Source: a virus
IMG/VR virus record: IMGVR_UViG_3300010331_000009
Strand: one strand, 5' to 3'
DNA: 33,833 bases
The notes below the pieces were generated by a model that was not told the DNA's origin, ran no database searches, and saw only the letters and a program-made list of their open reading frames with translations. The first letter of the stretch is position 1. Every line of letters begins with the position of its first letter. This document shows positions 1-33,833 of this stretch, piece after piece. The position numbers were made by a program, and so were the translations under genes.

Positions 1-123
1 CAATCTGACCTGCGCTTATCGTGTCTTGTGATAGACCACACTGAACTATGCAGGACTCCGCCGAACTCCCCACAGGGTTCTGCAAAGCCCTTATCCCCGG
101 TTCGAATCCGGGCGTCGCCTCCA
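1..123 (+). repeat. Left copy of 123-bp direct repeat (att site, attL or attP-like)
   Basis: Bases 1-123 are identical base for base to 33711-33833. The repeat ends exactly at a tRNA-like ...GGTTCGAATCCGGGCGTCGCCTCCA 3' end. Confidence 0.9.
80..123 (+). tRNA. tRNA-Cys(GCA) 3' half only (anticodon loop to CCA); no 5' half present
   Basis: Anticodon loop CTGCAAA at 80-86 (GCA at 82-84). Then a 3' anticodon-stem strand GCCCT, a 4-nt variable region, T arm CCCGG-TTCGAAT-CCGGG, acceptor strand CGTCGCC, discriminator T and CCA. U73 plus a GCA anticodon is the Cys pattern. The partner strand GG[CT]G[AG][CT]G is absent from 1-79. Confidence 0.65.
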
Positions 124-152
124 AGTCATCTACCTGCGGACACGCAGCCGAG

Positions 153-176
153 ACGGTCCCTCCGGGGGCCGTTTTC
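153..176 (+). terminator. Intrinsic terminator-like hairpin just downstream of the tRNA 3' half
   Basis: ACGGTCCC (153-160), loop TCCG, GGGGCCGT (165-172): 8 bp with one G-U pair. A T run (172-175) follows on the + strand. Confidence 0.6.
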
Positions 177-184
177 GCGTTCTG

Positions 185-206
185 GATGTGCACATAATGT
201 GCATCG
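185..206 (+). promoter_or_regulatory. Paired ATGTGCA direct repeats (candidate integrase arm-type site, right of core)
   Basis: GATGTGCAcataATGTGCATCG, with ATGTGCA at 186 and 197 (11-bp phasing). It matches 33618-33639 at 18/22 positions. Confidence 0.5.
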
Positions 207-210
207 CACC

Positions 211-1404
211 TCACGTCTCGGTCCCGAAGGGCACGTCCATCGTCGCGTCGAAGCCGGCCGCCGCCGCCGCATCGTCCATGGGGATCACGTGGGCGTAGTA
301 ATCCAGGGTGATCTGGATGGTCTTGTGACGCAGGCGTTTGGACACGATATGCACCGGCACGCGCTCCCGCAGCAGAAGCGTCGCATGCGTGTGACGGAGC
401 GAGTGGAAGGTCGCTCCGCGCGTCGACAAGGCCCCTGCATCCTCGAGCATCGCGACGGCCGAGCTGACGGCGTAGGACACCTTCGAAGGTCTCATCGGCT
501 GGCCGTGTCCCCCGCAGAAGACCAGGTCGCCGTCCTCCCACGCTTCGCCGAGGAACTCACGCCTTGCGTCCTGCTCCACACGGTGGCAGCGCAGCATGTC
601 ACCGGTAGTCGATCCGAACGACACGACACCTCGCGAGCTCGCGGTCTTGGCGTACGGGACGACGCTCACGCCCGCGTTCGTCTCGATAGCCTGGCTGAAC
701 ACGGCCACACTCCCCCCGCCCTCAACACCAAGGGCGACATGGCGCCACCTCATCCCCAGCACCTCGCCCAAGCGCAGCCCTGTGTAGAGCGACAGTTGCG
801 CGGGTCGCTCCAAGCGAGTGTCCTGCAACGCCCCCAGGAGCATGCTGGCCTCATCACGCTCGAACCATTGGGCGTCGGGTGCCTTGGGCGTCGGGTGGGC
901 CGCCTTGGCCGCCGGATTGATGGTGATGATCGGAGGAACCTGATCGCACGCGTCGTCGAGCGCCTGCTTCAGCACCTTATGCCGCTTGTGTACAGTCTCA
1001 GGAGAGACCAGTCGGCCTAGTCTCGTGACCTCGTTACCGAGACACCACTCGTAGTAGCCCTCGATATCGCGTTTCGTCAGGTCCTGCAACCGCATCGATC
1101 CGAGGCGGGCGGCGAAGGAGTCCAGCAACGACCGGTACCGGCTCAGCGTGGCCGCGCGAGCGTTCCCCATCACGCGACGCTTGGAGATCCATGTGTCGAA
1201 CCACTCACTGACCGTGATGTCGGCCGCCACCAGGTAGGCGCCGCGAGTCTGCGAGTCGATGATGCCGGCACGTACGCGCTTGGCCTCGGGCAGCTCGCAA
1301 TGGACCACGCGCGATCGGCGCTTCTTCGGTGACGCCTCGACCCACCAGAGCCGGTAGTGTCGCCTGCCGAGCTTCTCGATGCCCGGCGCCACAGTGTGGC
1401 CCAC
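211..1404 (-). CDS. int: Tyrosine integrase (site-specific recombinase)
   Basis: ORF track 211..1497 (-). The C-terminal motifs HSLRHTHATLLL and ITLDYYAHV (catalytic Tyr) fit a tyrosine recombinase. The ATG at 1497 would overlap the repressor gene by 92 nt, so GTG 1404 (1 nt after the repressor stop) or GTG 1392 is the more likely start. Confidence 0.9.
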   Translation of the reverse strand: MGHTVAPGIEKLGRRHYRLWWVEASPKKRRSRVVHCELPEAKRVRAGIIDSQTRGAYLVAADITVSEWFDTWISKRRVMGNARAATLSRYRSLLDSFAARLGSMRLQDLTKRDIEGYYEWCLGNEVTRLGRLVSPETVHKRHKVLKQALDDACDQVPPIITINPAAKAAHPTPKAPDAQWFERDEASMLLGALQDTRLERPAQLSLYTGLRLGEVLGMRWRHVALGVEGGGSVAVFSQAIETNAGVSVVPYAKTASSRGVVSFGSTTGDMLRCHRVEQDARREFLGEAWEDGDLVFCGGHGQPMRPSKVSYAVSSAVAMLEDAGALSTRGATFHSLRHTHATLLLRERVPVHIVSKRLRHKTIQITLDYYAHVIPMDDAAAAAGFDATMDVPFGTET

Positions 1405-2644: not shown

Positions 2645-3144
2645 GCCGTCGGCGCTACGTGTCCACCGACATCAGCTTGGACGCGGCGCTCAACCGCGTG
2701 GCGAAGCACTCCGACTTCGCCGCCCTGCTGTACTCGTGGATGATCCCGCACGCGACAGACGACGCGACCATCACCGGCGATCCCGAGACGCTCCTCATGG
2801 AGGTGTTTCCCGGGCGGCGCGACAAGGACATCCATGACGTCGAGAAAGCCCTCGAACTGATCGAGAGCGAAGGCCTCTTCGAGATGTGGTCCCGAATCAC
2901 CCAGACGATCTACTTCTGGCCCGAGACGTTCTACCGCTACCAGACCTACATCAAGCCGAGCGATCGCCGCGTAGAAGAGGCAAACGCCGCAGAACGCCGC
3001 AGAACGCCGAAGAACACCGCTTCTCTTTCACCTTCACTTTCTCTTTCACATACACATTCACTTTCACAATCAAGGTCTGTCCCTGTGGAAACTGTGGATT
3101 CTGTGGATAACTCGCCCAAAACACTGTCGAAGGCGGTTCGTTGA
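2641..3144 (+). CDS. Putative replication initiator/organizer protein with the origin repeats in its 3' end
   Basis: GTGA overlap start at 2641. The 3' third of the gene is built from tandem DNA repeats and DnaA boxes (2981-3110), as in the origin-within-initiator-gene arrangement of lambda O. The function is inferred from context only. Confidence 0.55.
   Translation: MSRRRYVSTDISLDAALNRVAKHSDFAALLYSWMIPHATDDATITGDPETLLMEVFPGRRDKDIHDVEKALELIESEGLFEMWSRITQTIYFWPETFYRYQTYIKPSDRRVEEANAAERRRTPKNTASLSPSLSLSHTHSLSQSRSVPVETVDSVDNSPKTLSKAVR
2981..3020 (+). repeat. 4 x 10-bp tandem repeat (cAAACGCCGC/AGAACGCCGC/AGAACGCCGA/AGAACACCGC)
   Basis: Read directly from the sequence. The period is one helical turn. 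Confidence 0.9.
3027..3067 (+). repeat. TTCAC pentamer cluster (5 copies; three as CTTTCAC)
   Basis: TTCAC at 3027, 3033, 3045, 3057 and 3063, in a locally AT-rich stretch. Confidence 0.85.
3083..3110 (+). repeat. 3 x CTGTGGA at 9-bp spacing; the last copy is a perfect reverse DnaA box TGTGGATAA
   Basis: CTGTGGA at 3083, 3092 and 3101. TGTGGATAA at 3102-3110. Confidence 0.9.
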
Positions 3145-3614
3145 TGCCTAAAACACCATCAAGCCCAGAAGTTATCCACAGCCTCAAGACCCGCGCAGCG
3201 TCACGCAGAGCACTGACCACGGTCGACAACGAACTCCGGACGCACCTCACCTCCGCGATCGCACTGCTGAGCAAGAGCAACCTGATCGACGCCATCCGGC
3301 TCCCGGACGTGTGGGCACTCGAGATCGAGACCCGCGACGGCGTCCGCGTCCGCTTCGAGTCCGGTCAGTCGAGCCCGACCTCCAATCCGGCGGCAACGTA
3401 TACCGCTCAGAAGCCCGTGCCCAAGCGCCTCGAGCAGACCATCGCGCAGCAGACACGCCTAGCCAAGGAACTCAAGGCCTCCGGGATCAGCGAGGGTACC
3501 TACGCCAGCATCCTGCACACGCACGGCGTCACGAACTCCCTCGAGCTCGACCGCCCGACGATGACCTCCGTCATCACCGCGATCGGCGTCGCCGGCAAGC
3601 AGGTCACGGCATGA
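3144..3614 (+). CDS. Hypothetical early protein
   Basis: ORF track 3141..3614. ATG 3144 overlaps the upstream TGA by 1 nt. Third codon positions are G/C-rich. No motif recognised. Confidence 0.7.
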   Translation: MPKTPSSPEVIHSLKTRAASRRALTTVDNELRTHLTSAIALLSKSNLIDAIRLPDVWALEIETRDGVRVRFESGQSSPTSNPAATYTAQKPVPKRLEQTIAQQTRLAKELKASGISEGTYASILHTHGVTNSLELDRPTMTSVITAIGVAGKQVTA

Positions 3615-4024
3615 GAGTCGAGATCCAGACACCGCTGCCCCCCACCGTCAACCACTACTACCGCAACGCCGCGGTACCGGTGCGAAACGCCACCACCGGC
3701 AAGATCGGCATCGTGCGCAAGCGCGTGCTCTCCGACCGCGCAGAGGCATGGATGCAGGGATCCGCACTCATGGCCAGGTGCGCGCTGCGCGTGGCCGGCT
3801 GGGTCATCCCCGAGGCGGGCGACAAGGTCGTCGTCGAGATCCGCGTCGCCTGGCCCGACAACCGATGCCGCGACATGTCCAACCTCCACAAGGCCATTGC
3901 CGACGTCCTCGAAGGCATCGCCTACGTCGACGACCGCTACGCGCTGCTCCGTGACATGGACTATCGCGTCAGTCCCCGAAACCCCGGGCTCTTCCTCACC
4001 GTCCGCCCGTTCGCAAACGACTGA
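3611..4024 (+). CDS. rusA: RusA-family Holliday junction resolvase
   Basis: ATGA overlap start at 3611. N-terminal PPTVNHYY and later R.RDMSNLHKAIADVLEGIAYVDD fit the RusA pattern. The longer track ORF (from 3311) is an off-frame extension. Confidence 0.85.
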   Translation: MRVEIQTPLPPTVNHYYRNAAVPVRNATTGKIGIVRKRVLSDRAEAWMQGSALMARCALRVAGWVIPEAGDKVVVEIRVAWPDNRCRDMSNLHKAIADVLEGIAYVDDRYALLRDMDYRVSPRNPGLFLTVRPFAND

Positions 4025-33272: not shown

Positions 33273-33566
33273 CTACGGGTTGCAAACGCTGCATGCCGTG
33301 AGCCCAGCAGATTGCGCCTGACCCAGACTCATGGCGATCTTACTTCTGCTGAGGTATCGGCAGCCGTCGGCGTGGTACTTAGCGCCAGTCCGGGTGCCGT
33401 ACACGGTTTGCTCCACCGGAGCCTCGGCGGGAGCCTCGATCGGTTGCGTCTGAACTGCCGGCGCGTTCGACTGGGGAGTTGTCGAGGTGGGCGCCGAAGA
33501 ACAGCCCGGAACAAACATGGCGAACGCGAGACACAGTGCGAGCAACCACCTGTAGGACTGGCGCAT
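33273..33566 (-). CDS. Lipoprotein with a C-terminal YH..GC...(19)..C..C motif (moron candidate)
   Basis: Start ATG 33566 (alternative 33587). Lipobox LAFAMFVPGC. The C-terminus is GAKYHADGCRYLSRSKIAMSLGQAQSAGLTACSVCNP. Confidence 0.7.
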   Translation of the reverse strand: MRQSYRWLLALCLAFAMFVPGCSSAPTSTTPQSNAPAVQTQPIEAPAEAPVEQTVYGTRTGAKYHADGCRYLSRSKIAMSLGQAQSAGLTACSVCNP

Positions 33567-33617
33567 CTTGGTACCCCCGTCGGACATCGAACGCCCGTTC
33601 ACCTCGCACCCCTGCGA

Positions 33618-33639
33618 GATGTGCAACTGATGTGCATCG
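33618..33639 (+). promoter_or_regulatory. Paired ATGTGCA direct repeats (candidate integrase arm-type site, left of core)
   Basis: GATGTGCAactgATGTGCATCG, with ATGTGCA at 33619 and 33630 (11-bp phasing). Same orientation as 185-206. Confidence 0.5.
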
Positions 33640-33710
33640 TAGCGTCACGAGGGCAGTCTACCGCAACTAGACCATTTCGGACTCTTTAGGACTTCACCGG
33701 ACACAACCCG

Positions 33711-33833
33711 CAATCTGACCTGCGCTTATCGTGTCTTGTGATAGACCACACTGAACTATGCAGGACTCCGCCGAACTCCCCACAGGGTTCTGCAAAGCCC
33801 TTATCCCCGGTTCGAATCCGGGCGTCGCCTCCA
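33711..33833 (+). repeat. Right copy of 123-bp direct repeat (att site, attR-like)
   Basis: Identical to 1-123. The window ends at the last base of the repeat. Confidence 0.9.
33790..33833 (+). tRNA. Second copy of the tRNA-Cys(GCA) 3' half (fragment)
   Basis: Identical to 80-123 and lies inside the right direct repeat. Confidence 0.65.

Follow-up and report, generated by a model that had tools for sequence, protein, structure and literature searches.

Mycobacteriophage L5, which integrates into a tRNA-Gly gene, and the phages P22 and P4 are examples of integrase phages that target the 3′ part of tRNA genes. In the phages and genomic islands that use tRNA genes as their targets, the integrase gene adjoins a fragment of the 3′ part of the tRNA, and integration regenerates the complete tRNA gene while displacing the 3′ fragment (Reiter 1989; Williams 2002; Islander, PMC4383910). 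The anticodon-centred class of such elements, in which the identity to the tRNA gene starts at the anticodon loop, accounts for 2,083 of the 3,919 islands in Islander (PMC4383910). Non-canonical tRNA fragments that have been displaced in chromosomes keep the T arm and the 3′ strand of the acceptor stem but have no 5′ half and do not constitute genes (PMC9897764). On the assembly side, de Bruijn graphs are known to yield ‘DTR’ overlaps at contig ends and breaks at shared sequence (COBRA, PMC10914622); in contigs produced by MEGAHIT or metaSPAdes, the length of the end overlaps is exactly maxK.

The stretch of DNA analysed here (hereafter, the window) is a virus contig of 33,833 nucleotides, IMG/VR record IMGVR_UViG_3300010331_000009. 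It is most likely the complete genome of a temperate siphovirus, 33,710 bp in length, opened at attP. Very probably, the window represents one full 33,710-bp turn of this genome followed by a 123-base de Bruijn overlap that is located at attP.

The attachment site resembles those of the described tDNA-targeting elements. The integrase gene adjoins a fragment of a tRNA 3′ part; as in the anticodon-centred class, the anticodon loop is where the identity begins; and the regeneration of the tRNA with displacement of the 3′ fragment is seen in a relative of this phage (genome G098). Two features of the attP of a tRNA-targeting tyrosine integrase, namely, an adjoining recombinase gene and identity to the 3′ part of a tRNA through to its end, are present. 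Compared with the cultured tRNA-targeting phages, the integrase is only 28–31% identical in sequence, and the target appears to be the tRNA-Cys of an uncultured Coriobacteriia-like member of Actinomycetota. The tRNA fragment is similar to the non-canonical ones (PMC9897764) in that the T arm and the acceptor 3′ strand are intact, the 5′ half is missing and there is no gene; unlike the displaced chromosomal fragments, it is a phage-borne copy that lies within attP. Similarly, the overlap shares with the ‘DTR’ overlaps (COBRA, PMC10914622) its exactness, its length, which equals a routine maxK (123), and its association with a fork, but differs from the usual case in that the opening point marks the att boundary to the base instead of being arbitrary.

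The terminal repeat and the tRNA-Cys core

The identical 123-base ends reported in the initial annotation were confirmed: positions 1–123 and 33711–33833 are 100% identical and make up the sole long repeat in the window. Most likely, 1–123 is not a second copy in the molecule, and the segment 33711–33833 has been written twice. The repeat and the att core within it are laid out as follows.

1–123, plus strand: left copy of the terminal overlap, apparently the same attP segment as 33711–33833 written again
33711–33833, plus strand: right copy of the terminal overlap, made up of 79 nt of the phage right arm and the 44-nt att core
33790–33833 (also 80–123), plus strand: attP core, exactly identical to the 3′ 44 nt of tRNA-Cys(GCA)
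33784–33789 (also 74–79), plus strand: partly conserved bases of the 5′ anticodon stem, possibly a core-type integrase site

The source of the core was sought with the T arm and the acceptor strand of the fragment as the query, in a set comprising one genome for each prokaryote species. This search yielded at least 120 loci, and in at least 19 loci the bases 80–123 are exactly the last 44 nt of a tRNA-Cys(GCA) gene, so that tRNA-Cys genes ending in this 44-mer, for which the initial annotation had suggested a search in the host genome, do exist in Coriobacteriia-like Actinomycetota. The matching host genes are 74 nt long and are identified as tRNA-Cys by ARAGORN. The identity begins with the anticodon loop, at its first base, and ends with the encoded CCA; it comprises the anticodon loop, the 3′ strand of the anticodon stem, the 4-nt variable loop, the T arm, the 3′ strand of the acceptor stem, U73 and the CCA; as claimed originally, the repeat contains the 3′ part of a tRNA-Cys only. 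The possibility that the fragment is the 3′ end of a tmRNA was considered and rejected: neither the discriminator nor the acceptor fits, and the call for the host genes is tRNA-Cys.

Upstream of base 80, two mismatched bases come first and five bases in common with the 5′ anticodon stem of the tRNA come next, beyond which there is no likeness. The position of this short segment (33784–33789) fits an anticodon-centred crossover. The crossover probably occurs within the anticodon loop, given that the identity begins there in both this phage and the G098 prophage.

Pairs of tRNA-Cys genes occur in two of the loci, L001 (7100–7376) and L088 (12–430), where the two copies are 237 nt and 375 nt apart, respectively; in L001, both copies have identical flanks. 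These pairs may be small duplications or att remnants.

A complete tRNA gene is absent from the repeat. ARAGORN called no tRNA across the whole window, and the search of positions 1–400 with the Rfam covariance models (cmscan) gave no tRNA match even at E ≤ 10, the outcome anticipated in the initial annotation. The Rfam matches to hammerhead and sRNA families in 113–224 are far under the gathering threshold and were dismissed as chance. The claim that the 79 bases upstream of the core hold no strand able to pair with the acceptor strand CGTCGCC also stood, as its complement is missing from 1–79 even when one mismatch is allowed; the exact complement is missing from 33400–33790 as well. With neither a call by a gene finder or covariance model nor a 5′ acceptor strand, the fragment does not qualify as a complete tRNA gene.

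The attP arms and the phage genome

The att core is flanked by arms that contain repeated words, hairpins and, on the left, the integrase gene.

33618–33639, plus strand: doublet in the right arm (P), with ATGTGCA present twice at a distance of 11 nt, putative arm-type integrase sites
185–206, plus strand: left-arm (P′) doublet of ATGTGCA, with the orientation and spacing of the P-arm doublet, putative arm-type sites
135–148, plus strand: small hairpin located 12 nt past the CCA, identified by folding and kept in the left arm of the relative
about 150–180, plus strand: GC-rich hairpin with four U behind it, which may act as a weak terminator of the rebuilt tRNA-Cys (fold z = −2.5)
211–1404, minus strand: tyrosine integrase (Pfam PF00589, E 7e-18, and PF13102) with a SAM-like N domain
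33273–33566, minus strand: last gene of the right arm, encoding a small protein with a lipoprotein-type signal peptide (from the translation)

Five of the seven matches to ATGTGCA in the window fall within the att region of approximately 350 nt. At the aligned places, each of the two arms of the G098 prophage contains a doublet as well, but of another word, an 8-mer. Arm-type sites that diverge in step with their integrase would be expected to look like this, and it is from such sequence patterns that we infer the role of the arm sites. The doublets 11 nt apart keep their positions in the window and in the contigs L152 and L164, with the word differing (ATGTGCA versus CCGTGTAC).

The hairpin at 135–148 recurs, nearly identical, in the left arm of the G098 prophage (L152, about 2735–2750, minus strand). 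It is also found after the unoccupied host tRNA-Cys of L080 (2488–2503), where an ordinary host gene follows. To judge from these sequences, the left arm of the phage seems to carry a copy of the host tRNA trailer past the tRNA end. At the place that corresponds to the second hairpin (150–180), the relative has a hairpin of a different sequence. The initial annotation had interpreted the structure at 153–176 as a terminator supplied by the phage; the fold is as described, but a terminator role is only plausible, given the weak U tract and the promoter and terminator consensus scan of 1–600, which produced no call, the 150–180 hairpin included.

The integrase, 397 amino acids long as called elsewhere, is encoded such that the 3′ end of the gene faces the att core, 87 nt from the CCA. 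Its 28–31% identity is with the integrases of Thermus phages and of mycobacteriophage Giles, and its relatives in the metagenome and viral contig collections do not exceed 36% identity over long matches, a distance too great for a useful comparison. At the opposite end of the genome, the gene at 33273–33566 is transcribed away from attP, and the end of its protein is Cys-rich. The function of this gene can be suggested from the signal peptide only; its place is typical of genes involved in lysogenic conversion or exclusion. Apart from the integrase, the gene set of the phage includes a repressor of the S24/HTH type, a ParB-N protein, the tape measure protein and a group made up of the large terminase, the portal, a ClpP-type protease and an HK97-type capsid protein.

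The phage was also traced in four glacier metagenome runs (X1–X4), each of which contains 99% of the words sampled from the first 10 kb of the window; these runs may include the source sample and accordingly do not count as independent of it. One stretch of the phage, 2824–3743, is missing from the k = 31 contigs of run X2, a gap that may reflect repeats or strain variation.

Probable integrated copies and the host

The exact integrase sequence (P0003), together with three start-codon variants that are 100% identical to it, is found on contigs of up to 45.6 kb in Logan/ENA and on contigs of 130.6 and 259.9 kb in JGI. These contigs are too long to consist of the phage alone, and therefore, integrated copies of the phage probably exist.

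The junctions of an integrated element can be examined in a relative. A search of 401 genomes from the class of one tRNA-matching MAG identified a prophage in G098 with an integrase that is 50% identical to that of the phage analysed here. At its left junction, the integrase gene is followed by approximately 105 nt, an intact tRNA-Cys on the other strand, 91 nt, tRNA-Gly(GCC) and then tRNA-Val. At the right junction, which is located on another contig, the phage arm is followed by a tRNA-Cys 3′ fragment of approximately 46 nt, for which ARAGORN makes no call, and by host DNA with a terminator hairpin. These junctions are textbook attL and attR.

Both arms of the G098 prophage align with the arms of the window, and this alignment identifies positions 1–79 as phage right-arm DNA. 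In particular, 1–79 aligns with the phage arm that adjoins attR in the related prophage, which bears out the original observation that phage-side DNA precedes the core in both copies of the repeat. The left core of the window is not preceded by the 5′ part of the tRNA, which is present in G098; thus, the window is not an integrated copy, and the left junction, as the initial annotation maintained, is not attL.

The host of the phage should possess a tRNA-Cys that ends in the 44-mer and is located 91 nt after tRNA-Gly(GCC). A 29-mer of the tRNA-Gly recovered from run X3 is present, exactly and at the matching distance, in several MAGs assigned to Coriobacteriia or ‘Actinomycetota’, which points to a Coriobacteriia-like member of Actinomycetota as the host.

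The fork at the CCA end and the origin of the overlap

The list of k values employed in the JGI runs of MEGAHIT is 23, 43, 63, 83, 103 and 123, and the exact terminal repeat of the window, 123 nt, equals the last k in this list, from which we infer the assembler that produced this contig and its k. The length of the repeat does not come from att homology, because the identity to the host covers only 44 of the 123 bases, starting from base 80.

The four glacier runs were analysed through their k = 31 Logan contigs, in which the depths are contig means that allow rough balances, and the junctions on the two sides of the 44-nt core are not phaseable. Each of the four runs with the phage shows a fork of the graph at the CCA, between bases 123 and 124. 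The right-arm contigs of X1, X2 and X4 (27.0, 30.1 and 1.5 kb, respectively) stop exactly at base 123, and that of X3 stops at base 109. After the fork, two contigs start at base 94 (the k − 1 overlap), one of which continues into the phage left arm, whereas the other one continues into a different sequence, with a T where the phage has an A at 124. In X3, there is additionally an entry branch at base 80, and the 44-nt core forms a separate contig with the depth of 123.6. The inputs to this core are, at 47.4, the phage right arm and, at 73.7, a contig of 207 nt, and the outputs are the phage left arm (52.4) and the other sequence (62.5), each pair adding up to approximately the depth of the core. 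The 207-nt contig consists of the 5′ part of tRNA-Cys, which abuts base 80, a 91-nt spacer and the end of tRNA-Gly(GCC); its observed depth of 73.7 compares with 67.5 expected for the host 5′ input. In X1, X2 and X4, the right-arm contig is unbroken through 80–123, with no entry at base 80; the depth balance calls for about 17, 21 and 6, respectively, from the host 5′ side, an input that the contigs do not show.

The second continuation is most likely the host DNA downstream of tRNA-Cys. The 30 bases of it that are known past the CCA were not found in 146 genomes of the order to which G098 belongs, and in the five candidate genomes that contain the exact core, the sequence downstream is a different one and the integrase matches are only weak. 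A degenerate pattern covering both continuations past the CCA has no match in the metagenome contig collection, and neither the two phage arms nor the 44-mer core has an exact match in the viral contig collection.

These observations can be accommodated in a simple scheme. Phage DNA with a continuous attP, whether an excised circle, a replicating concatemer or virion DNA, would form a loop in the assembly graph. The attP in question would consist of the 44-nt core, the putative arm-type sites on both sides and the adjoining integrase gene; integration mediated by the integrase would rebuild an identical tRNA-Cys at attL, with the displaced 3′ fragment staying at attR. The opening point of the loop would then be the 123-mer whose last bases are the CCA, a node with two exits, one of which would lead into the phage left arm (the attP junction) and the other one likely into host DNA (the attR of integrated copies). 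The contig would both start and end with this two-exit node. Among the three explanations put forward in the initial annotation, this one, an excised, circularised or concatemeric genome with attP seen twice, is the best: the length of the repeat, the fork at the CCA and a toy graph agree with it.

The toy de Bruijn graph was built at k = 123 from the window with filler flanks. The circle, by itself or together with an empty attB, gives an isolated cycle without a fixed opening point; a lysogen by itself gives a single linear contig; and the circle with a lysogen, as well as a tandem dimer, gives the contig 80–33833 and a 202-nt piece. Only the circle combined with the attR junction yields a unitig that reproduces the whole window, base for base. 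Hence, to produce the structure of the window, the graph must lack the attL-type entry at base 80. It is plausible that this branch, a short tRNA-rich host unitig, was lost to the pruning of tips or low-coverage paths. With reads of 150 nt, very few support a junction path at k = 123. There is only a slight chance that the missing attL is real, with the join between the right arm, the core and the flank well above its attL partner in abundance. Just as slim is the prospect that such an excess of attR arises from packaging or replication that starts in the integrated prophage and proceeds rightward through attR, reaching the host DNA beyond it, as in lateral transduction.

A comparable break is seen in other assemblies, where six MAG contigs (L109, L104, L076, L017, L088 and L025) begin 53–55 nt before the CCA of tRNA-Cys. 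These starts correspond to a 55-mer stub that ends at the tRNA 3′ end, i.e. to the same break signature at k = 55, which suggests that elements with such an att core break assemblies at one and the same base in many Coriobacteriia-like populations.

Other arrangements could in principle produce a window of this kind. Head-to-tail copies of the prophage at the tRNA-Cys, in which the internal join is attP-like and attR provides the fork at the CCA, would yield the same loop with the same exit; tandem arrays at tDNAs are known, with 125 cases among the 3,919 islands in Islander (PMC4383910), and the depth of the phage tracks that of the flanking DNA in the four samples, which suits a resident prophage. 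However, the ratio of the phage depth to that of the second continuation is 0.65–1.1 in the four runs, not about 2, the tandem dimer in the toy graph breaks at base 80 and does not rebuild the window, and the 130–260 kb contigs with the identical integrase imply that a single copy was assembled through. Tandem integration at one tRNA-Cys, which had been among the explanations proposed initially, is therefore unlikely, and in all cells it is disfavoured by the depth ratio. Integration of the phage beside a tRNA fragment and an arm left behind by an earlier related element, the remaining initial proposal, appears very unlikely even though displaced tRNA fragments do persist in genomes and two tRNA-Cys genes lie a few hundred bases apart in L001 and L088: the right-arm contigs are identical and unbroken over 27.0 kb (X1) and 30.1 kb (X2) up to the core. 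Because the window has no in-branch anywhere, only a complete, identical phage could serve as such a remnant, which is the tandem case again.

An isolated cycle does open at an arbitrary node in the toy graph, such that a plain circular overlap might merely happen to be opened at the CCA, without any fork in the source graph; this is highly improbable, as a random opening would hit the exact att boundary approximately once in 33,710 trials, and the fork at this very base is seen in four k = 31 assemblies. Finally, short exact terminal repeats exist in some phages, but the probability that a packaged linear genome has these 123 bases as genuine direct terminal repeats is close to negligible: their length equals a standard assembler k, they end on the right at the att boundary, the point at which the graph branches off into non-phage sequence, the HK97-type head module and the HNH genes adjoining the terminase are located far from the att site, and a temperate phage needs an unbroken attP for integration. 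An assembly overlap at attP, with the graph forked at the CCA, remains by far the preferred explanation.

With respect to annotation, the 123-base ‘att repeat’ most likely represents a single site, and the record is best described as a complete phage genome opened at attP, not as a prophage with an odd junction; the true att core comprises the 44 bases at 33790–33833. The end of the repeat at the CCA had been taken originally as an argument for a real att boundary and against an assembly overlap. This opposition does not hold, as the repeat is most likely an overlap of length k and, at the same time, anchored at the att boundary by the fork. The overlap would then be informative in that it reports the presence of both the attP and the attR junctions in the sample. 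What is observed here is an ordinary phage att core combined with an assembly signature, and no new mechanism is implied. As a rule, a terminal overlap that has the length of a commonly used k and ends at the 3′ end of a tRNA marks an att boundary and the presence of both the free and the integrated forms of the element in the sample.
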